The notes beneath the pieces were generated by a model, which was not told where the DNA came from, did no database searches, and worked only from the letters and a program-made list of their open reading frames with translations. Made by a program: the position numbers and the translations under genes. This document shows positions 22,982 through 64,000 of a DNA stretch of 64,000 nucleotides, one piece after another. How positions within the stretch are numbered: the first letter of the stretch is position 1; the number at the start of each line of letters is the position of its first letter. Source of the DNA: Enoplolaimus lenunculus. Taxonomy: Eukaryota. The stretch covers positions 62,001 through 126,000 of the forward strand of contig JASANG010000753.1 of the NCBI GenBank assembly GCA_030248215.1. The letters run 5' to 3'.

Positions 22982-23081
22982 TTAGAAGCATAAATCAACT
23001 TAAACTTTAGGTTCGTGCACCTTTTATTATGCTGAAGCATCACCTAGTCTGCATAACACTCTTAATCCCCATGCCTATCAG

Positions 23082-24681: not shown

Positions 24682-25065
24682 CCTTCCAGTGAGCAGGCCC
24701 ATATAATTAACATGGTCCAACCTTTCTGATAAAGTGGAACTCGACCCTCAATCAATCCGAACTACTTAAGAGCACCGAATGTCGAAATATAACAAAGTGT
24801 CGGATTAATATGGCTTTTGAAAAAGACATTATTCCGGATATATCCCGGACTAACTACCCTATATCCGCATTCGAATATGAAATAATATATGTTTAAAAAT
24901 TTAACACAATAAATTCAATACATTTTTATGATTTGCTAGAAATAAGCCTATTTCAATAGTAAAATAATTGAATGACAAAGAATAAAGCATTTCTATAAAA
25001 TGTTCATTGCTTTAAACCACAGGATAACAAAAAATTGACGCGATCATGAACAATTTTTAAAACAT

Positions 25066-26232: not shown

Positions 26233-26272
<40 letters not shown>

Positions 26273-27905
26273 CTATATATATACATATATACATGTATAT
26301 GTATATATGTATATATATTATATATATTTATATATATTTATATATGTGTATATAAAGTAATGTTTAGGACCCAAATATTCTATTTTTCATTCTGGTGGCA
26401 TTGACAATGAACGCTTTTACACCATATACCATTTTTATAAACTGGACCGACCAACCTTTGTATCTGTTTGTGGTTTTAGAAATTTTTCTAAAAACCGAAT
26501 CGTTTGAAAAGATAAAATGTATTCAATGATAACGGCAATATTTAATTTAATTTTCGCAACAAACATGCGTTACGTAAACATTACAATCGATATCGAAAGG
26601 GTTTTAGAAGCTTGGATTACCGAAGTCGCTATAAAATTGGACCGTTGAAAGTTTTGTGGATTTTTTACTCGAAAAATTTAACAAGAAACATTTTGTGGAA
26701 GCCAGCTTTAAAATTAAAAATATTTCTGTAAAAAACAGGTTCGTAAATATCAATTTACCTTTGCGGCATCGTGTATTCGTTCGGCAAAATACCCTGGTCG
26801 ATTTTTGATACATTTCACTGAAAAATTTGAAAAACAAATATTATTTAGCAGGCAGTAGACACCCTAATATTAGCAAAATACTAAATTATTCATGTATATG
26901 CACTATGCAAGCTACATGTTTTTATTCCAGTACGAAATCATAGGCACATACTTATACAAACCCTACTCATAATAGTAAAAAATTCCAAAAATTTTTAAAG
27001 TCTAAACCTTTTAGCCGTTTTACTACACAGTAAATCATTGGTGAATCAAATTGACTCTCTCCGAAATACGCTCTACGGGACTACGCAAACTGAGTCAAAT
27101 TCGCCTCTGCCGAAGTCAATTTCGACTCTGCCAGAGTCAACTTCGACTCTCACCGCACGTTTGTGTCTGGCGGAGTCGAATTTGACTCTCAGTTTGTGTA
27201 ATCCCGTATAGCCTATTTCGGAGAGTGTCAATTGGACTCATAAATTTTTTGCGGTTTAGGGCCATAGCCAGAGCTGTTGAAAGGAGGTTCTTGTTTTACA
27301 AATATTTCGCCGAGGGAGATTCTTGTGTTACCAACTGAAAACACTAGCGAATCCAGAAAGGATGGATTGGCGTATGCCCCCCGTCAGTAAACGTTTTTGA
27401 TAAAATGGTAAGGTCCAATACCTTAGAATTTTGTCCCAATTAAAAAATGGCAAATGTAAAGCATACAGCAAATCTTGCGTTTCATAAACTTTAGCGAGCC
27501 CGCCCCTCAGTGTTAGAAATTTTCGGATCCGCTGCTGACAACTCCAAGATAAAATCTCAAATCAGCTGTGTTTGACCCCGTATAACATCCGCAGACTACG
27601 CACCTGAGACAATTAATATATTCCTGAAATAGGACCCCCTGAACAGTGTGGAGGTACACAATCAACAAACCCCCCAAGTCTTACCAAGTGCCAGTAAACT
27701 TTTACACGTGTTCGCTGAAAATTCTTTTTTGATCGCAACTTCAATGTCATGCCCGGACAGCGTTTTGTATTCTTGAAAAACACACTGCAGCTGAGCGTAG
27801 TTTTCGGACGATAAAATTTTGAAAAATACTTCTTCGTCAGTGCCCCATTTCTTTTCGCCGGCTTTGTATAACGCCTAAAATATAATAATAACAATAATAA
27901 TAATA

Positions 27906-27944
<39 letters not shown>

Positions 27945-30900
27945 TAATAATAATAATAATAGTAATAATAATAATAATAGTAATAATAATAATTAATAAT
28001 AATAATAATAAATAATAATAATAATAGTAATAGTAAAAATAATAATAATTAATAATAATAATTAATAATAATAACAATCATTAATAATAATAAGAATAAC
28101 GTCGCCCGCCGTCACGCGGCACGGCAAAAAAAATATGCCGCGCGCTGCCGTGCGCTGCCGCGTGGCGCTGCAAAGCTTTTTATAAAAAAATTACCGCGCA
28201 CCACCAGCGGCAGCGAGCGGCAACGTGCGACGAAGAGCGATGGCGCGAGCCAACGCAACAATAATATTAAAAAATAACGCAATAATTAATAGCTTACATC
28301 AGCTTGTTGCTTTGCTTTTCCTGGATCAACATTGTGTGATTCTTCGCGTTCGGCCTAAAAACAATTCAAGCATCAAAAAAAACTTGTCTTTCTCAATTCG
28401 CAATTACTTTAACTCTGAGCTCATCAAACAACTTCGAATTTCAACGCTGAAAATATATATACGATTTTGCAAAACTTACACTAAAAATTTCAAACAGAAC
28501 AACATCAAAAACTAAATCCTTTTTACAAAATATGTACAGAAATGTTAGACTAAAGCATTAAGCATCATTTGTCATCAAAGGCCGTTAACGTTCCAAGCTT
28601 AGAGTTATTAAAACAAGTACCCCCATATCAGAATTCAGATTTCGTGCAGTCACCTTTTTTGCGTATAAATAGCCTATCCTGCCAAATGTTATGCCTGGGG
28701 TCGTAGCTAAGCGCGCGGGTGGCTCACCGCCCCTGGTAAACTTTTTAGCCCTCCTACAAAATTTTCAACTTTGCTTGTAAGTCATTGCAAACCCATGTAC
28801 ACTGTAAATTCCAATGAGTTAGTTAATCAACTCAGACGGAACGTTAGTTATTTCTGAGTTAATAACAGTAAACTTTAATTCACTCTGAGTTAACTTGATT
28901 CTCACTGTGAGTTGAGTTGACTCCGTGTGAATTGCTAAACTAAATCAGAATGAGTTGAATCAACTCAGAATTGTGAGTTCTGATAGTCCTAACTCAGACT
29001 GAGTGATTCAACTCATTTTGAGTTAAAATCAATTCACTGCAATTTATAGTGTATGCCTGTCCTGAAATAATTTTAGCACCCCCCAGCAAGGTGAACTGGC
29101 TACGGGCGTGGTTATGCCTCTGCCATCCTAGCAGAATCCTATGCCGACTAACCTTACACAGCGCTACCAGCAATTTTCGAAAGTTCCCTGACGTATCATC
29201 AATGACATCATCTGCCATTGATTTGTTGTACACTATAAAGTATAAATTGGCTGGGTTCCAGAGACATGACTTAAAATTCAATTTTGACTATAAAAGACGA
29301 CAATTGACTGAAACTTTTATATCCGGACTGCATTCAATAAACAAGTTCTGTTGCAAGTCTGTTCGATACATGCTGATTCCGGTGCCACATTCGAACTTCC
29401 GGACATGACTATGTAGTGAGATAACTATGTTGGCATGGAAATGCGTATTCATAGATACACATTTGACATTTTACCCTATGGCCGTATGCTCTAAATGTGT
29501 ATAGCACCGATTATCAGTTGGTGATAGGTCTTATAAGCTTCGAAGCAGTGAATACTGAGGCTCAAAATTTAGTACATTTCTCGCACATGATTAGCTATAC
29601 TCCAGTACCAATTTTGAGTTCAACAACTGCATGGAGACCAAAATGGTTCCAGGGGAGGGGAGCTGAGGTTTCCTTGGCACCCCTTGGCCAGGGGTTCGGC
29701 GCTGCAGCCGGAAAAATAGAATGCTTCAGCTTACAATGACGATAAGCCATAATAGCAGCTTTAATTTCGTCGTTTGTCCGACTGCACAAAATTTCAATCA
29801 GCGTTCCTTCGGTCGTCCCAAGTCCTTTCATTGCGCCGTACATTTCTTGAGCATCAAAATCGTCCGACGGCGCAAGAATCGCCACAACAATGGATTCGTC
29901 CAATCCTTTCAGCGCGTCCTTGAGTCGCTTTGTCATTTCCTGTAAAGAAATATTAATTTTACGATGGAAATTCAAATTTTTATTTTTAATACGTTGTCGT
30001 GTCGTAACTTTATGAGTAAAAGTATTAATTGTGGTACAACTCGGTTACAGGAACACAGCGAGTTTGGAATTCTACAAGCTACTGAATGTTACAGGGTTCA
30101 CAAGTGGAGCTAAAACTTTGCTAAGGGGACTGAAAATTTTGCTATTCGGGCTTACCCCCTTAGCCCATGTGTCCAATTTGTCTATGGGGCATGGAAATAG
30201 CAATATCTAAGTCAAGGAAATTAAAAACAGTAAAACAGTTTGCATGGCTGTGTAGCTGAGTGGTAAAGTATAGGATTGGTAATCCCGTTGGTTGCGGGAT
30301 CCATCCCTGCCGTACGCAATCAAAACTTAGTATTCCACAGGTATATACTCTATATACCAATGGTACTACATTAATTAATCATTTTAGTTTTGGTATTTAA
30401 TGCAGTTTGTAGAGCTGAGTTCAATGCTTGTAAATATTTTGAAATCAGACGATTGGTTAACGAGTTATTGTCAAATAACTGATTTGGCGCGCTGCCAACG
30501 ATTTGGGTTGGCGCCAAATCAGTTATTTGACCATAATTCGTTAACCAACCGTCTGATTGCAAAAAATTTAACACCGCTAGTCTCAACTCCGCAAACTGCG
30601 TCGGATGGTATAAAATTTGTGAAAGTTTTTGGATAAAAAAATTTTTGGGTCCCAAGGAGGACCTCGGGACCTTAAAAAGTCGAATTTTTCAAAAATTCAA
30701 ATTTGGGTGTGAAATAATGTTCAGGGCGAATCATGAGAAGCTCAAATATGCATCAAAATCCCACCACTTTTGGGCAAACGCGGGCTATGGGGATAACCAA
30801 AAAAACCCCTGTCTCCAAGCCGCCCGTCGCCGCTAACTGCCGCACAGGACCGTCCGGCACCACGCTTCAAAAGTTATTAGCATTCCACGCGGCGACATAC

Positions 30901-33900
30901 ATGGCGAGTATAGCGCAACCATTCTTACTTCTTGGAACATGGCTTTGTACGCTTTTTTGATTTCCTGTCGGTGTTTGTTTGATCGATGACAAAGGATTTT
31001 GAATATCGCTTCATCGTCGTATTTGTCTAAAAAATAAAAATAAACAAACAAATATATCTAAATATATTAAATATATATAAATAAATATAGAAAAAATAAA
31101 TAAAAATAATTGAGTGCACTAATGACTGGTTTCAGGTTTTCATATGTGCTTAGAGAAGTTGGTGACATTTTCTTTGAACCAAGTTGTTGAACCCAAAATT
31201 TTACACAGGCGAAAACTCAAATTTTGTCTATAGCAGTCAACAGGCAAATTCGTACAAGTTTGTAAAATTCTATACGGGGCCGTATTCGAGAGACGGGCCA
31301 GGGGTTGCTCAGCCCTTCTGGAGAAGTTTTGGTCCCCTAGAAAATTTTCAACCTTGCTTGTAAGCCAACAAAAAGCGTTGTATGGCCCTTCTGGAAAATT
31401 TTCAACCTTGCTTGTAAGCCAACAAAAAGCGTTGTATGGCCCTTCTGGAAAATTTTCAACCTTGCTTGTAAGCCAACAAAAAGCGTTGTATGGCCCTTCT
31501 GGAAAATTTTCAACCTTGCTTGTAAGCCAACAAAAAGCGTTGTATGGCCCTTCTGGAAAATTTTCAACCTTGCTTGTAAGCCAACAAAAAGCGTTGTATG
31601 GCCCTTCTGGAAAATTTTCAACCTTGCTTGTAAGCCAACAAAAAGCGTTGTATGGCCCTTCTGGAAAATTTTCAACCTTGCTTGTAAGCCAACAAAAAGC
31701 GTTGTATGGCCCTTCTGGAAAATTTTCAACCTTGCTTGTAAGCCAACAAAAAGCGTTGTATGGCCCTTCTGGAAAATTTTCAACCTTGCTTGTAAGCCAA
31801 CAAAAAGCGTTGTATGGCCCTTCTGGAAAATTTTCAACCTTGCTTGTAAGCCAACAAAAAGCGTTGTATGGCCCTTCTGGAAAATTTTCAACCTTGCTTG
31901 TAAGCCAACAAAAAGCGTTGTATGGCCCTTCCGGAAAATTTTCAACCTTGCTTGTAAGCCAACAAAAAGCGTTGTATGGCCCTTCTGGAAAATTTTCAAC
32001 CTTGCTTGTAAGCCAACAAAAAGCGTTGTATGGCCCTTCTGGAAAATTTTCAACCTTGCTTGTAAGCCAACAAAAAGCGTTGTATGGCCCTTCTGGAAAT
32101 TTTTCAACCTTGCTTGTAAGCCAACAAAAAGCGTTGTATGGCCCTTCTGGAAAATTTTCAACCTTGCTTGTAAGCCAACAAAAAGCGTTGTATGGCCCTT
32201 CTGGAAAAATTTCAACCTTGCTTGTAAGACAACAAAAAGCGTTGTATGGCCCTTCTTGAAAATTTTCAACCTTGCTTGTAAGCCAACAAAAAGCGTTGTA
32301 TGGCCCTTCTGGAAAATTTTCAACCTTGCTTGTAAGCCAACAAAAAGCGTTGTATGGCCCTTCTGGAAAATTTTCAACCTTGCTTGTAAGCCAACAAAAA
32401 GCGTTGTATGGCCCTTCTGGAAAATTTTCAACCTTGCTTGTAAGCCAACAAAAAGCGTTGTATGGCCCTTCTGGAAAATTTTCAACCTTGCTTGTAAGCC
32501 AACAAAAAGCGTTGTATGGCCCTTCTGGAAAATTTTCAACCTTGCTTGTAAGCCAACAAAAAGCGTTGTATGGCCCTCCTGGAAAATTTTCAACCTTGCT
32601 TGTAAGCCAACAAAAAGCCTTGTAAGCTCCCAAAGCAAGGTGAGCTTGCTACGGGCCTGATGTTATAGATCAGTTCTAAAATATGCTACATTACCAAATT
32701 TTCCCACATTTGAAGTTTGATTGGAGCCGTTGTGTCTGGATATCATCGGCCACTAAAAGAACCACAAGTATTAATATAAGGTCGACAACTGCGACAATTT
32801 TATTTAAAATCATTTTCTGTTCAACAACAGAGTTCAATATTTAAAAATTTAATGGCCGATGTATAACAGGGGCGGAACAGTATTATAAGCATATTCGTAA
32901 TCCTAAGCCTAAACCTAAGCGTAAGAATGAGCATATTCCTAAGCCTAAGCCTAAGCCTAAGCCTAAACCTAAGCGTAAGAATGAGCATATTCCTAAGCCT
33001 AAGCCTAAGCCTAAGCGTAAACCTAAGCGTAAGAATGAGCATATTCCTAAGCCTAAGCCTAAGCCTAAGCCCAAACCTAATCGTAAGAATGAGCATATTC
33101 CTAAGCCTAAGCCTACGCGTAAGCGTAAGAATGAGCATATTCTTAAGCCTAAGCCTAAGCGTAAAGCGTAAGAATGAGCATATTCTTAAGCCTAAGCCTA
33201 AGCGTAAGCGTAAGAATGAGCATATTTCTAAAAGCCTAAGCCTAAGCCAAGCAAAAAAATTAGTCTAAAGCTTAAGCTTACTCTATTGCAGTCCCACAGA
33301 AAACCGTTCCGCCCCTGATCTTTACATGGACCAAAAAATTCAACAACAAAATTACGTTTATTTGCATCGCCAGCAACGATGAGATCGTGGATTGCTTGCG
33401 CGTCCTGTTTTGCGTCATGATGTGGATGATGTCGTACCGTTCCACGTACCTGTCATATAAACGCCTGTATTCTCAAATGTATGTAGCACCAAGTATGGAT
33501 GATCACTTGTTAACAAGAGTGTGCAACTATCGAAATTTGTGTCCTACAAACCGAATTTGATTCAGACAGAGTCGAATTTTGACTCAGTTCGTGTAGTCAG
33601 GAAAAGCCTATTTCGGAGAGAGTTAATTTGATTCATCATTTTTTGCAGTGTACACCACCCGGCGTTGCGTTTTTGGTCGACTCCGCCAATGTGTATGGAG
33701 GTCCACGGTAACGTAATAAATGGGGAGGGGAATACTTTGCTAGAAAATATTATACGAAAACAGACCCCTCTAAAAATAAGTGGGATCGGTGAAAAATGCA
33801 ACGTGCGCTGGGTACATTGTTTTATACACAGAATGTACGCAGTTACACACTCTTGTTTTATCATTTTACTCTTAGTAGCACCTATTGCCAGTTGGTGATA

Positions 33901-43867: not shown

Positions 43868-46800
43868 TCAACGTTTCGTTCCGCCAACCTTTTGAATTGC
43901 TGAGTACTGGAAACAAGAACTTAATGTCAAATGTTAAGAACAGGGGCGGAACAGTATTATACGCATATTCTTGAGCCTAAGCCTGAGCCTAAACCTAAGC
44001 GTAAGAATGAGCATATTCCTAAGCCTAAGCCTGAGCCTAAACCTAAGCGTAAGAATGAGCATATTCCTAAGCCTAAGCCTAAACGTAAGCCTAAACCAAG
44101 CAACAAAATTAGTCTAAAGCTTAAGCTTACTCTATTGCAGTCCCACAGAAAAACGTTCCGCCCCTGATCTTTACATGGGCCAACTTAATCAAGCATCAAA
44201 TTTGAAAGAATTTTGTACTGTTTTCCTGCCTCTGGTTAAAAAGGTTGCAATATTTGTGAGACTAAAACATCTTAGCACAAGGCATTAACGTTCATTAGCT
44301 AGACTAAATTTTTTGCTTAGGCTTAGGTATAAGCTCATTTTTATGGTTTAGGCTTACGCTTAAAAATATACTATACTACTGTTTCAGATCTGGTTTATAG
44401 ACTGGCTTCTATATCGTTTTGGACTTCTATCATTTGATTCACATACCAAAATATAAGCGCAAAAATTATAGCTGGAACAATGCCCAAATTACGTATCATG
44501 AGCGGTTCAGGTCTGTGAATAAAAGCCATGGTCAACGATTCTTGTCAATATTTAAGTCAGAAGGTAACCAATGACTTAAAGCTATTATGGTTTTCTGTAT
44601 GTACAGGTAAATGTGCAATATATCTCATCTAAAAGTTATTTCTGAACGTCAATACATTTATACCTCAGTTTCGGCCAATGTTACTTTAAGGGGCGTATCA
44701 ACCGTATTCCTAAGCCTAAACGTAAGTGTTGCAATAATGTGTTCCTAAGCCTAAGCCTAAGCCTAAGCCTACACCTAAACAAAAATATGTAATCTAGATC
44801 CTAAATTACTCTTTTATGGACCCACCGGGAACCTGGACGCCCCACAAAGTAAACATGGGCCGCAATTTCTGACAGGAAAGCGGATGACCGTAACATATTT
44901 GAGGTAAATAGCCGGTTGCTCGTACGTTTTCCTCGACAGAAGCCTAAGTACCTTACCAAAGCGGGCCCGTAGCCAAGGGGGGCCAGGGGGGCCCAGCTCC
45001 CCTCTGGAAAAAATCGTGGCCCTCATCAGAAAATTTTCAACGTTTCTTGTAACTCATTGAAAACACTTGAATGCCCGTCCTGGAAATGTTTTTAGTCCCC
45101 TAACAAGGCGAGCTGGCTTCGGGCCTGTTTCAAAGCCTAATCCTAAGCCTAAACCTATAAAGCGTAATCCCAAGTTTTTACGCCAATAGTAGAAAGATTT
45201 GAAAGCTAAGTGCATGCTGCTAAACAGCCGGTGTGGCTAAAAAATCGGCTTAATTGTATAATCGTTTACCTGTCCTGAGGTTTGTTCATAATAAACCTGT
45301 ACCGGACTGGTGTGTGTGTCGTCGTCAAACTTTGCAGTTACGCTTTGTTCTTCAACTGGTTCAATTAAAATTACTGGTTGATGAATAACCTGAAAGTTTA
45401 ATTGGCAAATCCTAAGATTGCTATTGGTCAGATCCGTTGATCACCTTGCTATGGAAGTTAAAAAAAATTTTAAGAGGGGCGCATAAGGGATTCCGATTCA
45501 ACTTTACAAGCGAGATTGAAATTTTTCCTGAGGGAATGAAATTTTTCTAGGAGAGTTGAACTCTCACCCTGACCCCTTCTAGCTACAACTCGTAGGGGCC
45601 TTTTAAATCGACCGTCTGAAGTAAATACGAAAATATGCAAATTTGGTGCGCTCAACTATTCAATAAAGCGGTGCTGCCACCCAGGCATACCTGCGACAAA
45701 GGTACACTGCAAAAAAATGGTGAATCAAATTGACCCTCTCTGAAATAGGCCTTTCCTATTTCGGAGATAGTCAAGTTGACTCACAATTTTTTGCAGTGTA
45801 TTATACAACAAATGTTTTTGTGTTATTGTTTAACACTAAAATTGCGTTTGGCTTGTCATTCGTTTCGTTCGCGAACTGATGTAGTACGGCATATTGTGCA
45901 CTGCAAAAATTGAAACAAATCTACTCTCTCCGAAGTAGGCTATACGGGACTATAAAACACAACCTGAGTTAAATTCGACTGCGCCAGAGTCACACGTGCA
46001 ACTGAGTGAGTCGAATTTGACTCTGGCGGAGTTGAATTTGACTCCGTTTGTGTAGTCGCGCAAAGTCTTTTTCGGAGAGAGCAAATTTGATTCACCATTT
46101 TTTGCAGTGTGCGAACCTCTCCGTCCAAAATTTCTGTAACCACCATTGATGTCCCTATTATACTTAAATTATTTGAATTAAACGATACACAGCTTTATAC
46201 ACACACTGCAAAAAATGTTGAGTCAAATTGACACTCTCCGACATAGAGCCAAACGCGCCATTCAGTGAGTCGAACTTGAGTCTGGCGGAGTCGAATTTAA
46301 CTCAGTTTGTGTAGTCCTGTAGAACCTATTTCGGAGAGAATAAATTTGACTCACCATTATTTGCAGTGCATCGAAATACTAATAATTATTCTGGTAGTGA
46401 ATTAATCTAAACTTTGACAAACTTTCTAAAAATCATTTTCTTTAAAATTGTGTTGGCAGAAAAATAAAACATCATTTAAACAAATATGCTTTAACGTCCG
46501 TTTTCCGCTTTTGTTTCCGTCATTTTGATCACTGTCCGTTTTCGTTTTATACTATCCGTTTACACCCTGACTGTTGCGTCTTGTGAATTTAAATTCAAAT
46601 TGAATAAAAAGCATTTAAAACATCCTTGCATACTTCTTCAGACATTTGTCGGCTGAGCTCTTTGTATTCAGTTGTAGGAGTATCTGGAGGCAAGTAAATG
46701 ACATTGGGTGCCGGTGTCTAAAATAAAACCAACTTTTATCAGCACCATCCTAAGCGTCGTGCCTTTTGCCAGAAACCAGGTTTTATAAAACTGTACAGCA

Positions 46801-49800
46801 AAAAATGGTGAGTCAAATTGACTCTCTCCGATGTGGTGTGTTTTTAATAAATTGTAACAAACATTTTTAATTCAACACAACCAAAATTAATTTTTAATTT
46901 TTTATTCAAACGTTTGCTCTATTCTTCTTGTAGAATCTCATTTTCTTTACACTACCCCTTCCGTTTTAAAGAACAGTCATATGTATTTCACCAGGACTTT
47001 CGGACTAAAAGTAATAGCGGAATGACGTCCTTTCTTTAATTTACTGTTACTGTTAATATAACATGTTGCTAATTTCATTGCATTTGATAAACCAACATGT
47101 TTAGCATGGTGATCGGTGTAAAATGGCTTTAATTTGTCATAGTTTACCCAAGCAAACTTGTTGCTTCCGAAAAATTGAACTGCAACAGAATTTTGGTTAT
47201 GCTTTACATTTTGAAGAACATTGATATCATTACTAATAATTTTCGCTGGCCAGTATGGGTATTTAGGAAATTTTGCTAAGACAACGTCGCCTACTGACGC
47301 TTTTAGCAAAAATGATAAATCAGGCACGTTACTGTCTTGGTCTTGATCAAAAGTCGTTGAATTATCAGCTTGATCAAAAATATACGCTGGCTTAGCTCGA
47401 TCAATTGAAATTTTTTCAATATTGCCATTGATATTAACTGTCACAGTTTTTGAATCACGACCTAACACTTGAAAAGGTCCATTGTAACGATTACTTAATG
47501 TAGACTTAGGAGCAGGATTAAGTATCCAAATGCTTTTGCTAATTGTCATATCTTTCGGAATGAATTTATGAAACGGATGGCATCGTTGTGGAGCACGAAA
47601 ATTGTCGATCGTTTTTGATAAATAGTCAAAAGTGTATGCGTCGTTCGATGAATGGTGATTACATGGCATTAAAAACTGGCTTGGAAGATCAATGCTGGAA
47701 CCATATACAAGCATTGATGGGCTAAAACCCTCTGAATTAACAGCCATTCGTAACCCTAGTAGAATCATAGGTAGGGATTCAAACCAGCTACGATATGAAC
47801 AATGCGCGCGCAGTGCTGTTTTTAGAGTTCGATTGAATCTTTCAATAGCTCCGTTGCATGCAGGATGATACGATGTTGTCCGCTTACGTTGTATACCAAA
47901 GTATTGCATTAAATTCGCCCACAATGTGGATTCAAATTGGGAACCGCGATCAGTTATGATCGTACGTGGAATACCGAATCGCGATATCCACTGTTGTATA
48001 AGTGCATCGGCTACTGTTTCTGCAGATGTTTCAGAACATGGTATTACTTCAATCCACCGCGTGAAGCGGTCAATTATTGTAATTAAATACTTGTTTCCAC
48101 GAGACGGCGGCAGCGGGCCAACAATATCAATATGTATCGTGTGAAACCGCCCTGTAGTTGGAATCTGACCCGTCGGACTTTTAGTATGACGGTTAATTTT
48201 ACATTTTTGACACGTTTGGCAATATTTAGCCCACAATCTAATATCTTTATTCATTCCTGGCCAAATATATCGTTCCGCAATTGTACGTAATGTGGAATTT
48301 GGACCAGGATGGGCTAGGTTGTGAATTTGGTCAAAAATTAATTTGCGTTGTTTCGTAGGAATATATGGTCGTAGCTGAGGTTTGCTAGCGTCACAATAAA
48401 CAATGCTATCACCGATTTTAACATGTTTAATCGGGATGCTAGTTTGTTCGAAATATTTTATAAGACTATTATCTTGTTTTTGTTCCTCGGCTAATGTTTT
48501 ATCGAACATAGTTGAAATCGCAGCTATCGGGCGCGATAAAGTATCTGCAATTACGTTGTTGGAACCTGATATGTGTTTTATTTCACAACCAAATTCAGAA
48601 ATGTAGGACAGCCATCTCGATTGCTGGGGTGTTGGATTAGACATCTGTAGCGCTTTGAGTAAAGGCTTATGATCTGTTTGAATTGAAAGTTTGGAGCCAA
48701 GTAACCAATTGAAATGTTTCAAGCTTAGATAAATTGCTAAAAGTTCTCTGTCAAAAGCTGATTTTTTAGTTTCGTTTGGTGAAAATTTTGCAGAAAAGAA
48801 TGCTAATGGTTCACGTTGACCATTAACAATTTGATGTAAAACTGCACCAGCTGCCGTGGACGACGCATCTGTCGTTAATTCTAGTTTTGCGTTGCTGCTA
48901 GGAAAACTAAGTGTTACACAATTGCTTACTGCATTTTTCAATTCATTGAATGATGCAATTTGTTCTTCATTTAGTATAACTTGTTTTTTTGAGTTCTTTT
49001 GAACATTGCGAGTCAGGTCTGTTAACGGCGCCGCGATTTGTGAAAAGTTTTTGACAAACCGGTGATAAAAACCAGCCATTCCTAAGAATCGTTTTATGCC
49101 TGAAACTGTGGTAGGAATTTCCATAGTTTGGATAGCTTTTACTCTGCCCTGTATTGGACGAACGCCATTAGGTGAAATTTCAATTCCGACAAAATTGACT
49201 ATCGCAAAAATATTTACACTTTTCAGGCTTGAGTCGCAAACCTGATTGCTTTAATCGCTCGAATACAGCATCTAGATGCTTATAGTGTTCAATTTCGTTT
49301 GTACTAGCAATTAAAATGTCGTCCATGTATGCCTTAGCGAATGGTAAATCTTGCAAAATTGAGTCCATTAGGCTTTGAAATGTAGCAGATGCATTGCGAA
49401 GGCCAAATGGCATACGTCGATATAAAAATAAACCAAAGGGTGTAGTAATTGCCGTTTTAGGTTGATCTTCTAAAGCTATAGGTATTTGATTGAACGCAGA
49501 TACTAAATCTAATTTTGAGAATAAAGTGCAGTTGCGAAGTGAATTGGTAATGTCAGCAATATTAGGCATTGGATATCTGTCAGGCATTGTTTGTGTATTT
49601 AGTATTCTGTAATCTCCGCATGGTCTCCATGGGCATGACTTATCATTTTTTGGTGCCATATGCAATGGAGATGCCCAAGGAGATTCTCCGCGATAAATAA
49701 CACCTTGCTGTTCAAGTTTTTTAAAAACGGACTTTGCTATTACTAACTTTTCGCCAAATAGTCTGCGCGGTTTAGACCAGCAAGGAGGGCCTTGTGTAAC

Positions 49801-52800
49801 TATATGGTGCACAACGTTATGTGTTATTTCTTGGTTACAAGAAATTGGTTTAAAAATTTCTGCATATTTTGCTGTTAGTTCTAATATCACACGATTGTTA
49901 TTTTTTACCTGCGAATTTTGTTGAATTGTACAAACATACCAAGTGTTATCATTGCGTTCCGTTGAACTTTGACATGGTTGTAAATTTTTATTTGATCCTG
50001 GTACTAAAACTTTCCGTTTGCAGTCGACTAATAAATTGTGATGACTGAGAAAATCGTAACCAAGAATCGGGAATGAAACGTTTGCTATAACAAAATTCCA
50101 CTTGAACGTTTGCGCTAGTGGCATAATTGTGAACGTTATCACTCTGTGGCCGTTTGTTTGTAATTCGCCGCCGTTTGCAGTTTTAAAACGTTCATGTCAC
50201 AGAAATTGGCGCTTTACATCATTGTTACCAAACTGTAATGGTAAAAAACTGCGTTCGCTACCGCTATCTACCAGAAATTTACCAATTTCGGGTGCGGCAA
50301 GAAATATTGTGCTTACTCCGCTGTATGCCGCTACTGAAGCGGAGCGCTTGGGTTTCCCGGTCCGTTGTCTGCAACATTACTTCGATCTATCCAACTACAC
50401 GGAGATACGCATTTACGAGCTTCTTTTCCGAATTTAAAATGGTAAAAACAAAATTTGCCATCGGGATTGTATCGTCTCCGAGTTGTGCTGGAACTGCGCA
50501 ATCTTGAACGTGAACTTCGTTGGTTGTTGTGTTGTGATATACTTCTTGATCTGCTTGTTAATGCACAAACAAGAGCTGAGAGCTCGTTTATTCGTTGGTT
50601 TATTATTTCTAACTGTTTGTTTGTATCAATAGACTGATTCGAATTAATATTGTTCACTTGACTTGAAATTGGAATATGTTCGACAATTTTGTCTGCAGTT
50701 TCTGCTAATTTCTCAAGAGAAACACTATCAAGAGAAACTAAAACAGTTCTAACAGTATCAGGCAAAGATTACCATTGTTAGGCGCTAAGCGATGAGTGAC
50801 GAAAAGGCTGCGGGCGGGGGGCGGCAGCCGGGGTGCTACTTAGTAATTTACGTAACTTTGTTCTTGACTGTCACAGAATGCGCCACATGCAATTTTTAAT
50901 TGTTGCGTAGTCGTCAGATAATTTCGAACCACTGTCGAAAATGACACTTGTGGGAAGGACACGAATTAGACTCTGCTTTTTTACTTCATCGGTACAATTC
51001 ACCATTAATTGTTCAATTTGTTCAAACCAAACAGATGTATCTTTTTCATAAAAGTCTGGCAATTTTAACGGTCTTGTTGTTCTCTGTTAACTCAGAGCCA
51101 CAGTTATTTAATTTTCGAACAATAGTTAAGGCGAGCCTAACCGCAGTTGCATCCATATTTTCTAAATATTCAATAATAAGTCGTTTAGTTTGTGGCATTG
51201 CAAAATCAGGATCGTCCTCACTAAGTGTTTGTAAGACTAATTCTAACGTTTGTTTGCTTAGAGTACGCAAATCTTCTGGACCTGTGTTTAATTCAACGTT
51301 ACCAGACAATATTAATAACCAACGTAGTTGTGTCGCGTGATTTTGCGTCATATTTCCGCATAGCACACGGAAATTTAACAAATCATTTGTAAAAGTTCGT
51401 GAATAATGTTGCTGCAATCTAACTAAAGCTGTTGGTTGTGCAAATCGTAGTGATATCGCCAAAAATCCGCTTGAATACCAAGCGGGGGCGTCAGATTTGT
51501 AAGCACGTTGAGAAGGACTGTTGAACACAATAGCGATAACTGCCATTAGGAATCGTGTCCTAATAACGTTTACGTTTTTTGAAGCATACCTGCGATTAGC
51601 CCTCGACATCACGTCGGGGTCACCAATATGATGTGGTGTGTTTTTAATAAATTGTAACAAACATTTTTAATTCAACACAACCAAAATTAATTTTTAATTT
51701 TTTATTCAAACGTTTGCTCTATTCTTCTTGTAGAATCTCATTTTCTTTACATCCGAAATAGGCTCTACGACACTACACAAACTGAGTCAAATTCGACTCT
51801 GACAGAGTCAATGTCGACTCACTGTGTCGGACGTGTCACTCTAGCGGAGTCGAATTTGACTCAGTTTGTGTAATCCCGTAGAGCCTATTTCGGGGTGAAT
51901 CAATTTGACTCACCATTTTTTGCTGTGTGGGTGATTAACCAAAACATCGGTATGTTTAAATTACGAATCATTTGCGTTATTTATGGATCTTCCACGTTAC
52001 AATGTCTACGTTGAAGTAAAAGGTTCTACGGTATGAAGTCCCTGTTCCTACCTGTCCTAACTGGCCAAAAGACTCATCAGACACAAATTTCAAATACTGA
52101 ACCACTCACTTCCTCACGTATTCGGTCGATTTGATACGGACCAATCCAAGAATGATATTCTGATATTACCGTTGGTCGCCGGTCAGTGTCGGATTCAACT
52201 TGATCGGGGTCATTTTTCGATGAAGATACAGGTCTAAGAATTGCCTTGGTGTTGTAGTGAACTAGTCGTGTTAAACTCGAAACGTCACGATAAATTTGTC
52301 GCCATAGCAAATATGCTGATGCCAAAAATGTTACACCTGTTGAATTGAAACATTTTCCAGTTACACTGTAAAAAAATGGTGAGTCAAATTGACTCCCTCG
52401 GAAATAGGCTTTTCCTGACTACATAAACTGAGTCAAATTCGACTCCACCAGAGTCAAACGTGCGACTCAGTGAATCGAATTTGACTCTGGCGGAGTCGAA
52501 TTCTGACTCAATTTGTGTATTCCCGAAACGCCTATTTGAGAGGGTTAATCTGACTCACCATTTTTTGCAGTGTAGTATTTTCACGAGTGCATGATACAAG
52601 AGTATAAGCCCATGTATAGAAAGAGTATGCAACTGTTGGTAGTCCGCATGACGCAAAATGTACCACCGGTTATTGCGTTTTTGGCTGATATCCATTATTT
52701 AGTGGGGGTCGGTGTCATATGCAACACCCCTCAATTAAACTATAATCAGAGCGTTTTTCACACAGAATTCGCACAGTGCCAATGTTTGCCTAGGTTGTAT

Positions 52801-55488
52801 TGTCGTCTAAATAAGTGGAATCGGTCAAAATCGCAACGCGTACCAGGTACTCATTTTGCACCATGCGGAACCCAAAGAGTTGCATACAGGCCTAGGTTTA
52901 GGATTTTAGGCTTACGTTTAGGTTTAGTCTTAAAAATTTACGCTTATACTTTAGCAGATACGTCAATAATACTGTTAACGTCGTCCGAACTAAAATGAAC
53001 AATAGAAACGCATAGCCGTAAAACTAAATGAGCTAAGCTGGTCAAGGTGTTGACAACAATTTTTTCAGCTTTTTTGAGAATCCTTTGAAATTACTCTTTT
53101 AAGTTTAAACCATTAAATATAAAAAATAGTACTACATTTTACAAAAACGCAGACAAATCCAATACCAAAAATGCCAATTTGCCCAAAGATTTTACCGGAG
53201 CCAGAGGTCGATTTTTTGCCGGAACCGGATGCAGATCTCTGGTTGTTGTTTTATTTTGCTGTTAATTAATGTTTCTTTAATATTGGCTTAACCCTTTACT
53301 CATAGAGTATACTATGAGCAACTAAAAATACAATAATGTACGAGCAATACACACACACTGTGAGCAGTGTTTAACATTTATAACATATATGCACAGTGCG
53401 AAATCTCCACAAGACGTGAGAGCCCCCTCGAGCTCGAGCGTCAAGCTCCTATAGCTCAGTGGTCATCGTAAACGCCTCCCACCCGCGAGACTGGGGTTCG
53501 AATCTTACGTTGAAAATACATCTCATATGAAATTGAAAATATTCATGTGAGTAAGGGTTAATTGTAATATTAATTATGATTCATCCAAGTTTCCATTGGA
53601 AGTTCGAGTTGCATTTCAACGATATAATTCGTGATTCGCTAACCTAAAACAGTTGCCAGTATTTGTTCAGCCACCAAGAGAACGTTGATAACTGTATGAT
53701 TCCAATACATCACGTAATAGAACCAAACTGCCCTGTAACAATAGTCACTTTCTTTAGAAAATCTTACTTTGCCTTAACCTTCTAAGCCTTTTGCCTACGC
53801 CTTTGCGTGTAACTTTGTCTGTGCCTTTTAACCGCTGCCTAAGCATTGGCGTCAGCCTTTGTGTTTTCTTAAGCCGTTGGGGTAGGCTTTTACTTAAGGT
53901 GTTGCCTTCGTCTTTACTTAAGCTGTCGGCCAGACCGTTGTCTAAACCTTTGTCTGAGCCTTTGTCAAAGTCTTTGCCTAAGCTTTTAACCATAGCGTTT
54001 CCCTAAGCGTAAACATGACGCTAAATGTGCTATAAAACGTGCATAAAAATTAAAACGGTTCCAGTTTGCGTAAACGTTGAGTTTGAATAAGGTGTAACTA
54101 ATTGTTCTCGTCTATTGACAGGTATTTCAGTAAAATCAAAACAATTTGTCAACAAATTTGCAATAATTCTTACTGATAAATAACAGCGACAACGCAGAGT
54201 ACAACTGCAATTGCATGCAATACACCCAATATAGCCTGTAACCATGGTTTGCCTTTTAGCGCTTGAGTGCATGCACTTAGCAAACTGCAAGTAACCATTG
54301 CGATAAATGCACAAAACGAACTGCACCAAACTCCAGAACCTAAAAACAATTTGGAGAGCTAATGTATACATAGAACAGGGCTGTAACAGTAGTATTTGGA
54401 ACCAGATTCCTAATCCGAAGCCTAAGTCTAAACGTAACAATGAGCTTTAAAATCGAAGCCTAAGCCTAAGCTTAAGCATAAGCAAAAAAGCAGTCAAAAG
54501 CCTAAGCTTTTTACTCTATTGAAGTCCCGCAGAACAACGTTCCAGCCAAAGGGGTTAAAAAATAAAATTTTGATGTTATTGTGATGAACAAATTTCATTC
54601 CAAAAATTGGGGTTTACATTTGAACGATTCACTTTTAGGCTTGTAATCGGGCTATTACCGTACCAGTGTCTAAAGTACGGCAGCAGCGTTGATTTAAACC
54701 TAGGCGATAGCCTAAGGCTTAAGCGAAATAAGCTTGTGCCTAAACCTAAGTAAGCCTGAGATTAAAGCCTGATTCTTTGCCAAAGCCGGTCCATGTAACG
54801 ATAAGGGGCGGAACGTTTATCTGTGGGACTACAAAAGAGTAAGCTGAAGCTTTAGACTAATTTTTGTGCTTGGCTTAGGCTTAGGTTTAGGAATATGCTT
54901 ATAATACTGTTCCGCCCCTGATCTTTACATTGGTCCCAATGCCTTAGCTTTTGAAAATATCACTAAGACTGTATTCGTACGCCTACACCATAGCCTAAGC
55001 CTAACCCTAAACTATTAATCATAGGCCTTATTTTTGAAGCTGGAGTTGAAGGTCTTCGCCTTTGATTGGAATCCGTTATTTGGCCCATGTATAGAATAGG
55101 GCCGAAGCTATTAAGCTTTTGACTAATTTTTTTGCTTAGGAGGCTTAGGCTTAGGCTTAGGCTCAGGTATATGCTCATTGTTATGCTTAGGCTTAGGCTT
55201 AGGCATAGGTTTAGGCGTAGGCTTAGGAATATGCTTATACTACTGCTCCGGCCGTGTTCTATACATTGATAAACGATCGCAATTGATGTAATTTACTCCG
55301 AGGTAACTTTTACCATCGTAACAACAGGATAACGCCAACTGTGACACGAAATGCAACAATAAAACTGCAACTGCAAACAAAATCATTGATAACACAATTT
55401 GTAGTGCAGTCAACCAACAAAGCGCGTTTCGATATGAACGAACGGTGCTGGTTGCGTCGTCAGCTGATTTTTCGCTATTTTTGTTCAT
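43868..55488 (-). CDS. Four-transmembrane MS4A/CD20-like protein with long Tyr-rich cytoplasmic C-tail, 7 exons, about 299 aa
   Basis: Exons (minus): 55314-55488, 54174-54339, 53644-53732, 52110-52336, 46634-46717, 45270-45389, 43868-43906; GT-AG and phase-consistent (900 nt). TM1 [22 protein letters not shown]2 [18 protein letters not shown]3 [24 protein letters not shown]4 [24 protein letters not shown]. The last three exons are less certain. Confidence 0.72.
43926..44181. mobile_element. (GCCTAA)n MITE, Merlin-like (family has GG termini, 8-bp TSD)
   Basis: Perfect TSD AACTTAAT (43918-43925, 44182-44189); family TIR GGCCCATGTAAAGATCAGGGGCGGAAC, left end slightly decayed here. Confidence 0.75.
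45705..46368. mobile_element. Cluster of three palindromic CACTG-ended MITEs (45705-45798, 45899-46109, 46204-46368)
   Basis: CACTGCAAAAA...TTTGCAGTG termini; 2-bp flanking duplications TA, TG and CA respectively (CACTA/CMC-like). Confidence 0.75.
46832..46951 (-). repeat. 3' LTR (120 bp)
   Basis: Identical to 51632-51751; preceded on the minus strand by polypurine tract AACGGAAGGGGTAG (46952-46965). Confidence 0.95.
46977..50358 (-). pseudogene. pol: pol: protease, RT, RNase H, integrase, GPY/F and C-terminal PWWP domain; in-frame TGA at 50197-50199 and frameshift near 49200 as assembled
   Basis: [13 protein letters not shown] (PR); [24 protein letters not shown] (RT); TTDAS..DRELLA..TDHKPL (RH); H-H-CxxC and D..TDRG..E (IN); [35 protein letters not shown] (PWWP). 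Confidence 0.9.
50316..50358 (-). promoter_or_regulatory. Putative -1 programmed ribosomal frameshift signal (gag-pol)
   Basis: G_GGA_AAC heptamer in gag frame (50358-50352), 7-nt spacer, stem CTCCGCT/AGCGGAG; the -1 frame runs into the protease. Confidence 0.7.
50331..51609 (-). pseudogene. gag: gag (frameshifted at about 51062 and disrupted at about 50760-50880), with an N-terminal leader containing a 2A-like motif
   Basis: [19 protein letters not shown] resembles the KLPxFW..WF.Q.E gag motif; C-terminal [18 protein letters not shown] knuckle as in Mag-group Gypsy elements. Confidence 0.75.
51608..51625 (-). promoter_or_regulatory. Primer binding site, tRNA-Trp
   Basis: Minus strand TGGTGACCCCGACGTGAT, the 18-nt tRNA-Trp PBS familiar from avian sarcoma/leukosis viruses, 6 nt downstream of the 5' LTR. 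Confidence 0.9.
51632..51751 (-). repeat. 5' LTR (120 bp)
   Basis: Identical to 46832-46951. Confidence 0.95.
52364..52572. mobile_element. Palindromic CACTG-ended MITE; other copies about 27025-27255, 33540-33650 (partial), 56980-57199
   Basis: CACTGTAAAAAAATGGTGAGTCAAATT...TGACTCACCATTTTTTGCAGTG, TA flanks. Confidence 0.75.
53292..53557 (+). mobile_element. piggyBac-like tRNA-bearing MITE, monomeric subfamily B (related copy about 9915-10160)
   Basis: TTAA-CCCTTTACTCA...TGTGAGTAAGGG-TTAA; internal GCTCCTATAGCTCAGTGG...GGGGTTCGAATC. Confidence 0.75.
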
Positions 55489-59902: not shown

Positions 59903-62640
59903 ATGTTTCGTCTAATTTCACTTAATATCGCGTTTACATGCTGTATCGTTGGCAGTTTTGCGCTGTTTACCAGCGGTCCAGACTGGAGCGGACTACGAGG
60001 TAAAGGAACACTAAAATTGTTTAAAACTTACCCTTGTGTCTTATGGAACACGCCCACGCATTTTTTTGATCCCGTACCCAACTATTGAAAGAATTGTGTC
60101 TTATGGAACACGCCCACGCATTTTTTTGATCCCGTACCCAACTATTGAAAGAATTGTGTCTTATGGAACACGCCCACGCATTTTTTTGATCCCATACCCA
60201 ACTATTGAAAGAATTGTGTCTTATGGAACACGCCCACGCATTTTTTTGATCCCATACCCAACTATTGAATGAATTGTGTCTTATGGAACACGCCCACGCA
60301 TTTTTTTGATCCCATACCCAACTATTGAAAGAATTGTGTCTTATGGAACACGCCCACGCATTTGTTTGATCCCGTACCCAACTATTGAAAGAATTGTGTC
60401 TTATGGAACACGCCCACGCATTTTTTTGATCCCATACCCAACTATTGAAAGAATTGTGTCTTATGGAACACGCCCACGCATTTTTTTGATCCCGTACCCA
60501 ACTATTGAAAGAATTGTGTCTTATGGAACACGCCCACGCATTTTTTTGATCCCGTACCCAACTATTGAAAGAATTGTGTCTTATGGAACACGCCCACGCA
60601 TTTTTTTGATCCCGTACCCAACTATTGAAAGAATTGTGTCTTATGGAACACGCCCACGCATTTTTTTGATCCCGTACCCAACTATTGAAAGAATTGTGTC
60701 TTATGGAACACGCCCACGCATTTTTTTGATCCCATACCCAACTACTGAACGAATTGTGTCTTATGGAACACGCCCACGCATTTTTTGATCCCGTACCCAA
60801 CTATTGAAAGAATTGTGTCTTATGGAACACGCCCACGCATTTTTTTGATCCCGTACCCAACTATTGAAAGAATTGTGTCTTATGGAACACGCCCACGCAT
60901 TTTTTTGATCCCGTACCCAACTATTGAAAGAATTGTGTCTTATGGAACACGCCCACGCATTTTTTTGATCCCGTACCCAACTATTGAAAGAATTGTGTCT
61001 TATGGAACACGCCCACGCATTTTTTTGATCCCGTACCCAACTATTGAAAGAATTGTGTCTTATGGAACACGCCCACGCATTGTTTTGGTCCCATGCCCAA
61101 CTACTGAAAGAATTGTGTCTTATGGAACACGCCCACGCATTTTTTTTTATCCCATACCCAACTACTGAACGAATTGTGTCTTATGGAACACGCCCACGCA
61201 TTTTTTTGATCCCGTACCCAACTATTGAAAGAATTGTGTCTTATGGAACACGCCCACGCATTGTTTTGGTCCCATGCCCAACTACTGAAAGAATTGTGTC
61301 TTATGGAACACGCCCACGCATTTTTTTGGTCCCATGCCCAACTACTGAACGAATTGTGTCTTATGGAACACGCCCACGCATTGTTTTGGTCCCATGCCCA
61401 ACTACTGAACGAATTGTGTCTTATGGAACACGCCCACGCATTGTTTTGGTCCCATGCCCAACTACTGAAAGAATTGTGTCTTATGAAACACGCCCACGCA
61501 TTATTTTGGTCCCATGCCCAACTACTGAACGAATTGTGTCTTATGGAACACGCCCACGCATTGTTTTGGTCCCATGCCCAACTACTGAAAGAATTGTGTC
61601 TTATGGAACACGCCCACGCATTGTTTTGGTCCCATGCCCAACTACTGAAAGAATTGTGTCTTATGGAACACGCCCACGCATTATTTTGGTCCCATGCCCA
61701 ACTACTGAACGAATTGTGTCTTATGGAACACGCCCACGCATTGTTTTGGTCCCATGCCCAACTACTGAAAGAATTGTGTCTTATGAAACACGCCCACGCA
61801 TTATTTTGGTCCCATGCCCAACTACTGAACGAACTGTGTCTTATGGAACACGCCCACGCATTGTTTTGGTCCCATGCCCAACTACTGAAAGAATTGTGTC
61901 TTATGGAACACGCCCACGCATTATTTTGGTCCCATGCCCAACTACTGAAAGAATTGTGTCTTATGGAACACGCCCACGCATTTTTTTGGTCCCATGCCCA
62001 ACTACTGAAAGAATTGTGTCTTATGGAACACGCCCACGCATGTTCTTTGTCCCGTTCCCAACTATTGAAAGAATTGTGTCTTATGAAACACGCCCACGCA
62101 TTATTTTGGTCCCATGCCCAACTACTGAACGAACTGTGTCTTATGGAACACGCCCACGCATTTTTTTGGTCCCATGCCCAACTAATGAAAGAATAGTGAC
62201 ATATGGTAAACGCCCACGCATGAATTTGGTCCCATGCCCAACTACTGAAAGAATTGTGTCTTATGGAACACGCCCACGCATTTTTTTGGTCCCATGCCCA
62301 ACTACTGAAAGAATTGTGTCTTATGGAACACGCCCACGCATGTTCTTGGTCCCGTACCCAACTATTGAAAGAATTGTGTCTTATGGAACACGCCCACGCA
62401 TTGTTTTGGTTCCATGCCCAACTACTGAAAGAGTTGTGTCTTATGGAACACGCCCACGCATTTTTTTGGTCCCATGCCCAACTACTGAAAGAATTATTAA
62501 AAAGCTCAGATTGTTTTTTTTATTTTCAGTAACATTTGGAGTACCTCATATCCACGGTGCTTTTGATACGCTGCCACGAACGGTGGATGATGCTGTTTCT
62601 GCTGGATTTAAAATGCTCGATAGTCAATGTACCAGCTCAA
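59903..62640 (+). CDS. 5' part (first two coding exons) of a secreted protein of unknown function; continues beyond the window
   Basis: Exon 59903-59999 MFRLISLNIAFTCCIVGSFA-LFTSGPDWSGLR (signal-peptide-like) with GTAAAG donor. Exon 62530-62640 after TTTTCAG splices in phase: VTFGVPHIHGAFDTLPRTVDDAVSAGFKMLDSQCTSS, GTAAGG donor. Confidence 0.75.
60034..62495. repeat. 60-bp tandem minisatellite, about 41 copies, filling intron 1 of the secreted-protein gene
   Basis: Unit TTGTGTCTTATGGAACACGCCCACGCATTTTTTTGATCCCGTACCCAACTATTGAAAGAA and variants. Confidence 0.97.
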
Positions 62641-64000
62641 GTAAGGTCTTTTGATTTTTGGGACCATATACAGGAACGGATCGCTTTCGTGTGGGACTAT
62701 TCATACAAAATAAATTGTCTTGAAATTTTAAGACTCCAATTTATTTAAATTCTCAAGACAATAATGTCTTATATTTGAGACATTAATAGCCTTTAACAGC
62801 TCAGAAATTTGTGTCTGAAATGGTTAAAACATAAATGTCTGACGTTGGACGAATCTTAGGTTCTAAAATTAGTTAATTTGGTTGAGCTTAGCTCCCAATT
62901 TAAAATGTGGCTTCTCTGGCAAATCTTGTTTCTAAGAGATATATGTCTTAAAAATCAACAAATCAAGTCTTTTATTTCAGACATATAGTTCAGACATAAT
63001 TGTCTTGTATTTCACAAATATTTGTCTTAATCGTTTATGCAACACCTTCTTAAATTTAAGACATTTAAGTGTTAAAATTTCAGACACAGATTTCTGAAAA
63101 ATTTTAGAAACTGATGACTTGCATTCAAGAAATATACGTCAGGAGTCTACATTAAGACATAATGTTTTGAATTTAAGAAAATAATTCTTTAATATAAGAA
63201 AATGTTTTTGTGTTTGCAGTACGTTTAAGCTTTTTAAACTAATTTTATTGCATAGGCTTAGGATTAGGTATAAACTCATTTTTACGCTATGCTTAGGCTT
63301 AGGTATAAGATCAATCTTACGCCTAGGCTTAAGCTTAAACTTAGGCTTAGGAATATGCTTATAGCTACTTGTATGGCCCTGACCTATTGCAATGGCCGAT
63401 TTTAGAAACGAAAGGTTCGTTTAAGATGGTACTAAATTTTCAAGTGGTAATTCTTAAGCAAACAACCTAAAATCACGAATTAACAGAACAGGGGTGGACC
63501 AGAACAGCGTTTCATTTCTTAAATTTCCAAACTTGTCACCGTTTGCATTTTAGTAATTTCTGCGGGGAACATATTGCCATAGTTTTATAAGTATACGCTT
63601 TTAACGCTTCTAAACACATTTGAAAATAGTGTGAACTTGGTTTTTGAGTTCGTCAATTTTTCAAATCTACTTAAGTAAATGAGTTAGGTTTTAGGCTAAT
63701 AGTCGCAGTTTAGCTCACTGTAATGACCTGAATATGAGGGGGGACTGATATTTATTTGGCCTCTCCAGAGGGTACCCTCCCTTGTTATTTGGTTACGGAC
63801 TGTTATTTATTTTTAATTTACGCTCCGCCACCCTTCGTTACTGATATATATCCGGTACTGCAATCATCTGTTGAATTAAACGTTTATTTGTCTTGTGCCA
63901 ATAGCTTGAGCGATAATACAAGGTTATATTTAGGAATGTACTTTCAAAACTTAAGTACGCTTTTAAGTTTCGAACTCAAATTATTTGGTCCTGGAGTCAT

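Follow-up and report, generated by a model that had tools for sequence, protein, structure and literature searches.

Among Gypsy retrotransposons, chromatin readers borne by the integrase itself, the chromodomains, direct insertion to silent chromatin, and MAGGY is reportedly an example of a chromovirus with a chromodomain at the C-terminus of its integrase. To our knowledge, targeting of gene bodies is achieved solely via borrowed host proteins, namely LEDGF in lentiviruses and possibly dP75 in the case of long terminal repeat (LTR) elements of flies. The usual ligand of PWWP domains is histone H3 di- or trimethylated at lysine 36 (H3K36me2/3). Here, we describe a Ty3/Gypsy element of Enoplolaimus lenunculus in which a PWWP domain is encoded by the element itself, directly behind the integrase. 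The element spans 4,920 bp (46832-51751, minus strand; gene order gag, protease, reverse transcriptase, RNase H, integrase) and lies in a stretch of 64,000 nucleotides from contig JASANG010000753.1 (positions 62,001 to 126,000), which is referred to below as the window and to which all coordinates refer.

Replacing the reader of LEDGF retargets the integration of human immunodeficiency virus (HIV) (PMC4176367), and fly LTR elements favour H3K36me3 regions, an effect that host PWWP proteins may mediate (PMC10018349). In chromoviruses, the targeting chromodomain sits behind the GPY/F motif (PMC6673714; bioRxiv 10.1101/2021.11.30.470311), and the CsRn1 clade is recognised by a gag of the CHCC type and a primer site for tRNA-Trp (PMC2582038). 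A survey of transposon-chromatin fusions counted 823 cases, mostly involving PHD and Chromo domains (Grau-Bove et al., bioRxiv 10.1101/2021.11.30.470311); PWWP is not named in its section on fusions, and its Supplementary Table 6 could contain such cases. No element-encoded PWWP is found in the consulted parts of PMC10018349, PMC12147562, PMC4176367, PMC2582038, PMC3616739, PMC6673714, PMC6673722 and PMC12336834. More broadly, the searched literature, outside which lie Repbase, GyDB and subscription journals, gave no description of one, in agreement with a preliminary description of this DNA, whose author knew of no described PWWP-integrase clade. The integrase-PWWP clade is apparently undescribed.

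The window element shares with chromoviruses a Royal-family methyl-lysine reader behind the GPY/F motif of a Gypsy integrase, proposed to act as a tether in cis. It differs in that chromoviruses carry a chromodomain at this place, whereas the window element combines PWWP with features of the CsRn1 type, and in that chromoviruses are directed to H3K9-methylated heterochromatin, whereas the predicted target here is H3K36-methylated active chromatin. No Chromo family was matched in the window pol at E<=0.1 in Pfam, PWWP standing in its place; because it is without a chromodomain, the element is not a chromovirus. Its likeness to the lentiviral tethers LEDGF/p75 (PSIP1) and HRP2 consists in a similar PWWP linked to a DDE integrase (PMC4176367, PMC3616739, PMC12336834), with the LEDGF residues W21, F44, A51, Y18, T47 and K14 largely kept. 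Unlike LEDGF, the PWWP of the element is self-encoded and covalently joined to the integrase, is a predicted reader, has no accompanying integrase-binding domain or AT-hook and is basic at the position of Glu49.

With the CsRn1 clade (CsRn1, PwRn1, AgCR, Boudicca), the window element has in common what we take to be a Trp-type primer-binding site, as well as the CHCC knuckle and GPY/F. It also shares the lack of a chromodomain and of env, a likeness at the level of features (PMC2582038), and differs by adding a PWWP after GPY/F. The target duplication reported for PwRn1 is 4 bp, as against 5 bp here, a difference that is not stated to define the clade in the consulted part of the source (PMC2582038). 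Lineage-restricted capture of a host reader into a retrotransposon polyprotein, with a proposed insertion bias, is also described for CopiaMBD of a centipede and spiders and for PHD retrotransposons (PMC6673714; bioRxiv 10.1101/2021.11.30.470311); these systems differ in superfamily, domain and mark, and CopiaMBD is thought to steer to methylated repeats (PMC6673714).

A PWWP domain in the integrase frame

The reading frame at 46977-49250 (minus strand, as for all element features) is open over 757 codons and encodes the end of reverse transcriptase, RNase H, the H2C2 zinc finger, the integrase core, GPY/F, a linker, the PWWP domain and a tail. Pfam finds RT_RNaseH, Integrase_H2C2, rve (aa 370-463) and PWWP (PF00855, aa 654-722) in this order, the last with E 1.6e-15 and 57.8-62 bits against a curated cut-off of 25.6. 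The final 117 aa match 45 distinct Protein Data Bank (PDB) sequences at E<=0.01, every one a PWWP-bearing protein by name, including NSD2/3, DNMT3B, HDGF/HRP2/HRP3, LEDGF/PSIP1, MSH6 and PWWP2B. Both lines of evidence agree with the preliminary description, which had recognised a PWWP domain at the pol C-terminus after GPY/F by eye, and the motifs that it quoted, YNGPFQV and PYWP, begin at 47486 and 47258 as claimed.

The integrase core (47840-48143) retains D375, D434 and E470 with intact D,D-35-E spacing and is followed by the GPY/F module, the C-terminal beta domain of the integrase, at 47382-47486 according to model and alignment. The PWWP domain occupies 47055-47297, with the barrel at 47121-47297 and a basic helical part at 47055-47120. 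The aromatic-cage positions Y, W and F, said earlier to be kept, are indeed present as Y664 (47259-47261), W667 (47250-47252) and F693 (47172-47174), and the pocket floor is A700 (47151-47153). Between GPY/F and PWWP, a variable linker (47298-47381) is predicted to be disordered, with predicted local distance difference test (pLDDT) values <50 at model residues 261-277. The linker had been called acidic, which holds for the window copy but is not a conserved property, given that the mean identity of this segment among the six PWWP-bearing families described below is 13%, with 0/28 invariant columns. The domain lies inside the element, as had also been proposed, because the stop codon (46977-46979), the polypurine tract (46952-46967), the 3' LTR (120 bp, 46832-46951, 25 bases on from the stop), its identical 5' partner and the 5-bp TCGGA target-site duplication (46827-46831 and 51752-51756) enclose it.

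AlphaFold modelling of the last 177 aa as a single sequence reached a mean pLDDT of only 35, and the model used here was built on a 53-row alignment in which six rows contain PWWP. It comprises the integrase core, the GPY/F domain, the disordered linker and a separate, confident barrel of five strands (model residues 289-342, block pLDDT 88-94). Model residues 1-155 match the integrase cores of PFV and Ty3 with Z 21.3 and 17.9, respectively, and the barrel matches Tudor chains and the PWWP chains of LEDGF, fly and BRPF1 with Z 6.7-8.3 and root-mean-square deviations of 2.2-2.8. Among the top structural matches is 6kco, a PWWP solved with single-stranded DNA (Z 7.7). C-terminal helices are predicted at 346-349 and 356-363, where the model is unreliable past residue 351 (pLDDT <50). 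Foldseek on the 53-row model listed integrases alone, so the PWWP fold was assessed by a wide structure search. The model shows a predicted barrel of the Royal fold, of which the fold does not resolve the subfamily.

The signal for the donor of the domain is split. A profile built from five C-termini finds its best single-domain PDB matches in HRP3, HRP2, HDGF and LEDGF (42-45 bits), whereas the single window sequence favours Pdp1 of S. pombe (2l89, among its best PDB matches) and a related PWWP protein. The sole host protein in the protein set available for this comparison is an NSD protein, P0155.

Relatives with the same architecture

When 1.84 billion representatives were searched in HMMER with a 390-aa query made up of the integrase core and PWWP, 77,526 matched at E<=0.001. 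Among the best 150 of these, four carry a PWWP behind GPY/F (P0006, P0010, P0025 and P0049). A profile search of longer proteins yielded five matches among 7,994 scored candidates, comprising P0010 again, the new relative P0154, a host NSD protein and two pols without PWWP. In all five relatives, the PWWP scores 41-50 bits and thus exceeds the Pfam cut-off of 25.6; P0006 (1,128 aa) and P0154 (1,353 aa) are uninterrupted frames running from reverse transcriptase through RNase H and integrase to PWWP. Four relatives come from Logan and one from JGI/IMG, every one as a one-member cluster, and their identity with the window protein over integrase plus PWWP is 38-45%.

PWWP was found in 0/81 related DNA loci (80 of 452 confirmed metagenome loci plus one), and a word-index homolog search with the window protein gave two matches, neither with PWWP, and another of this kind found the clade in 0/44 candidates. 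In the ESM Atlas, where small clusters fall outside the search and all scores were <0.9, integrase clusters and PWWP clusters were found and none with both. The integrase-PWWP build is rare. As a separate observation, residues 112-216 of P0154 (Logan), between protease and reverse transcriptase, match the IMPACT/UPF0029 domain (E 1.8e-25), possibly a second captured host-type domain and possibly a read-through in gene calling.

Phylogenetic placement

All trees were built without the PWWP region, on unnamed hits, and contain no named outgroup and no CsRn1 or chromovirus references. In a FastTree analysis of 156 integrase cores (from 165 hits, nine having been removed for <60% cover), the six PWWP bearers fall together, with support of 0.929, with P0012, the sequence of which stops at the GPY/F motif. 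A quick IQ-TREE run on the integrase core of 52 of the 156 rows groups five PWWP bearers with P0012 at support 87. A more careful IQ-TREE analysis (LG+G4) used RNase H plus integrase in 32 rows, namely the six, P0012, three sisters, 16 non-redundant representatives of 54 full-length hits and six more; four to six of these rows are less than half filled. The six and P0012 were recovered at 89/95 and in 892/1000 bootstrap trees, with 1 change, and this seven-member clade is nested in a starred 99/97 clade together with three PWWP-less proteins. A group joining the window element to the PWWP-less sisters, named after the trees were seen, was rejected with an approximately unbiased test value (p-AU) of 0.004. 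A single capture of PWWP in the ancestor of the clade is the simplest reading of these alignments and is supported, not proven. The occurrence of PWWP in six diverged families, which form one clade in two of the three trees, also disposes of a one-off capture, which the preliminary description had named as an outcome that would contradict it.

Conservation of the domain and its pocket

Conservation among the six PWWP bearers was expressed as mean pairwise identity per segment. It amounts to 47% for the integrase segment, 52% for GPY/F, 41% for the PWWP barrel (range 32-49%) and 28% for the helical part of the domain, and the tail falls to 14%, near the value given above for the linker. The barrel value comes near that of the integrase segment, whereas linker and tail have diverged. 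The pocket residues of LEDGF, taken from the consulted part of PMC3616739, were mapped through HRP2/HRP3 alignments. The equivalents of Trp21, Phe44 and Ala51 are invariant (6/6); that of Tyr18 is aromatic throughout (Y, Y, Y, Y, W, F); that of Thr47 is serine or threonine in 6/6; and that of Lys14 is kept in 5/6. All six domains are net basic, with a predicted isoelectric point (pI) of 9.2-10.3. A basic TRSGR-like motif follows GPY/F in 68/112 PWWP-less integrases but in 0/6 PWWP bearers and 0/2 scored PWWP-less sisters, 19 short tails having been set aside; this motif presumably recalls the anchors that bind the nucleosome acidic patch.

Insertion site and abundance

The element is inserted in predicted intron 4 (46718-52949, minus strand, the same strand as the element) of a host gene with predicted exons at 55314-55488, 54174-54339, 53644-53732, 52950-53023, 46634-46717 and 45270-45389, between exon 4 and exon 5 and 115 bases from the latter. 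The six exons have GT-AG ends and compatible phases and together make up 236 codons without a stop, in which four stretches are hydrophobic; Pfam gave nothing at cut-off on them, and no RNA run was listed for the sequence. The layout of the predicted four-transmembrane protein resembles that of MS4A/CD20. The preliminary description had placed this copy in an intron, and the element is indeed flanked by exons whose GT-AG ends and phases fit, in what is still a predicted gene. Predicted gene spans cover at least 40% of the window when the element is left out of account. The insertion interrupts a palindromic repeat resembling a miniature inverted-repeat transposable element, of which the larger part lies at 51757-51930 and the rest at about 46790-46826; many copies of 72-92% identity occur elsewhere in the window, and the summed contig depth of this repeat reaches tens to hundreds of thousands. 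Given these gene spans, a single insertion and a high-copy repeat as its site, the intronic position lends weak support to targeting.

Contigs matching the element were available from three sequencing runs (X1 to X3), which cover at most two samples of one study; since one of them is possibly the source of the window itself, the runs are not independent. Contig depth does not equal copy number. In X3, one contig (46951-47511, three differences) bridges GPY/F, the linker, PWWP and the polypurine tract at depth 197, compared with 214 and 272 for the rest of the element and 14-16 for flank contigs. The corresponding depths are 74 for PWWP, 75-91 for the rest and 7.5-8.6 for the flanks in X2, and 42, 14-37 and 18-29 in X1. 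PWWP is as abundant as the remaining element in these contigs, and one sample probably contains several copies of the element. Further sequences in X2 are a variant of the 3' end (11 differences over 182 bases) and other LTR junctions, of which three contigs represent the 5' end of the LTR and one or more the 3' end; no such junction occurs among the contigs listed for X1. These additional junctions could be solo LTRs, and inspection by eye shows no likeness between their flanks and the interrupted repeat. Joints resembling an empty site were considered as evidence of insertion polymorphism and rejected, since the repeat occurs in many copies besides the interrupted one.

Anatomy of the element and its surroundings

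The 5' LTR (51632-51751) is 120 bp long, has TG...CA ends and matches the 3' LTR at 120/120 bases with no mismatch. The primer-binding site (51608-51625) starts six bases past it and is presumably of the tRNA-Trp type; its first 13 bases also occur in 24/81 related loci, and no tRNA was found with which to compare it. A leader or 5' gag frame of 206 codons (51049-51666) has no Pfam match and is followed by a fragmented gag (50334-51086), the start of which matches DUF7041 weakly (E 0.039). The gag knuckle is CHCC (CX2HX9CX3C, 50397-50450), a feature also present in 50/81 related loci. The protease begins at 50197-50328, with LVDSG at 50260-50274 and then an in-frame stop; the remaining protease and the reverse transcriptase lie at 49180-50196 (RVT_1 E 5e-32; YMDD at 49318-49329), a part that is 53% identical to P0006 across 329 aa.

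The window copy is damaged upstream of the integrase frame, with a frameshifted gag, a protease region interrupted by the in-frame stop near 50198 and a frameshift near 49.2 kb that leaves the reverse transcriptase and the RNase H-integrase frame in different frames. Across gag-pol, substitutions and small indels separate the run contigs from it, and they are densest at about 50760-50860. The LTRs are identical although gag and pol carry several breaks, a combination explained either by a defective copy mobilised in trans or by assembly errors. Within the leader frame (51277-51303), GNVELNTGP follows a hydrophobic run and differs from the 2A consensus at two positions; we take it to be a degenerate 2A/StopGo motif of the type known in open reading frames of non-LTR elements. 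A pattern search found such a 2A-like motif in 0/81 related loci.

Elsewhere in the window, one or more multi-exon annexin genes occupy about 15362-33452 (minus strand), where seven exon frames match PF00191, five of them above cut-off. TTAGGC/GCCTAA occurs 151 times in the window and TTAGGG/CCCTAA 48 times, in dispersed repeats; TTAGGC is the telomere unit of nematodes, as would suit a nematode host. Two long tandem arrays, at about 31140-32660 and 60015-62650, yield spurious long open frames.

Possible roles of the PWWP domain

To judge from the sequences, the leading explanation, at about even odds, is that the PWWP serves as a built-in tether to methyl-lysine nucleosomes, most probably those carrying H3K36me2/3, and so would bias insertion toward transcribed chromatin. 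The fuller proposal, that an undescribed old clade encodes its own equivalent of LEDGF, which would read H3K36-methylated nucleosomes and steer insertion into gene bodies, is credible but somewhat short of probable. Under this proposal, a host PWWP would have been captured once in the ancestor of the clade and would remain on the mature integrase via the flexible linker behind GPY/F. Several copies of the domain would thus sit on the multimeric intasome, and although a single PWWP would bind weakly, through its Y/W/F pocket and a basic DNA-binding face, avidity would supply selectivity, as in LEDGF. Integration near marked nucleosomes would then give new copies a transcribed neighbourhood.

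Several observations weigh against such a tether. At the pocket, the Met15 position of LEDGF varies among the bearers (F, F, S, W, V, F), the Glu49 position is lysine or arginine in 6/6, and the window PWWP has no acidic residue at all in the equivalent loop; DNMT3B also has lysine at this position, yet in the PDB alignment it keeps an aspartate two residues before. Glu49 contributes to the function of the LEDGF PWWP (PMC3616739). The Z scores of the barrel do not discriminate PWWP from Tudor barrels. With respect to the clade, the 52-row integrase-core tree leaves the window element unplaced, with 2 changes, and the 89/95 support of the 32-row tree falls below the starred threshold of the tool. 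The intron is a prediction only, and the sole mapped insertion interrupts a dispersed high-copy repeat. Furthermore, fly LTR elements already favour H3K36me3, so that a gene-body bias alone would prove no role for the domain, and PWWP-less sister families are the control that is needed.

The basic residues at the Glu49 position, together with the basic pI of all six domains, would also fit a domain that grips nucleosomal or naked DNA by its basic face regardless of marks, raising chromatin affinity without steering the site. The LEDGF PWWP itself binds DNA at ~1.5 uM and the H3K36me3 peptide at mM (PMC3616739), and 6kco, the PWWP solved with DNA, ranks among the top structural matches. The TRSGR-like motif is missing from all bearers, as though one basic tether had replaced another, a point weakened by its absence from two PWWP-less sisters as well. 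We nevertheless consider purely mark-blind DNA binding unlikely, since the aromatic pocket and its alanine floor are kept in 6/6 despite about 50% divergence, although W and F may be required for the fold too. A reader of a repeat or silent-chromatin mark (H4K20me, or heterochromatic H3K36me2/3), serving as a safe-harbour tether in the manner of chromoviruses, appears more doubtful still. It would suit a window copy that sits inside a high-copy repeat and the single-sequence match to Pdp1, the PWWP of which reads H4K20me in S. pombe. H3K36me2 is described in pericentromeric heterochromatin (PMC11076809), heterochromatin with dual H3K9me3/H3K36me3 is described as well (PMC8860380), and fusions of transposons to active-mark readers are rare, for which a cost of hitting active chromatin has been suggested in the Bromo case (bioRxiv 10.1101/2021.11.30.470311). 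Against this, the profile is nearest to the HDGF/LEDGF family, the interrupted repeat itself lies within the predicted intron, close to an exon, and the other LTR junctions have flanks of a different kind.

A role after or apart from integration, in which the PWWP would cover the H3K36-methylated chromatin of the element's own copies against silencing or act as a decoy released by the protease, is improbable. Captured chromatin domains may aid transposons in evading suppression (Grau-Bove et al., bioRxiv 10.1101/2021.11.30.470311), and the long, unconserved linker could harbour a protease site; however, the domain holds a fixed place right behind GPY/F in 6/6, as in known integrase-borne targeting modules, and pol products are generally scarce. 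The notion that the PWWP rides along neutrally, was captured by the window copy alone or reflects an assembly artefact is largely refuted and retains hardly any probability. It could draw on the several breaks upstream in the window copy and on the rarity of the clade (four of the best 150 integrase matches, 0/81 related loci). In contrast, the PWWP stays in frame in six families, drawn from three sources (window, Logan and JGI/IMG), the X3 contig spans it at a depth far above that of the flanks, and conservation is limited to the domain (barrel versus linker).

For the tether to H3K36-methylated chromatin, the six families with an in-frame PWWP suggest that one lineage solved in cis the targeting problem that HIV faces. 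Its predicted target, active chromatin, is the opposite of that of chromoviruses and, if true, would make these elements their mirror image. PWWP-bearing and PWWP-less sister families within the same genomes would offer a natural comparison, which bears on whether insertion sites have shifted and on how sustainable a strategy of entering active chromatin may be for a germ-line parasite. In addition, the six PWWP domains, compact, naturally diverged and basic at the pocket edge, provide material for understanding methyl-lysine selectivity.

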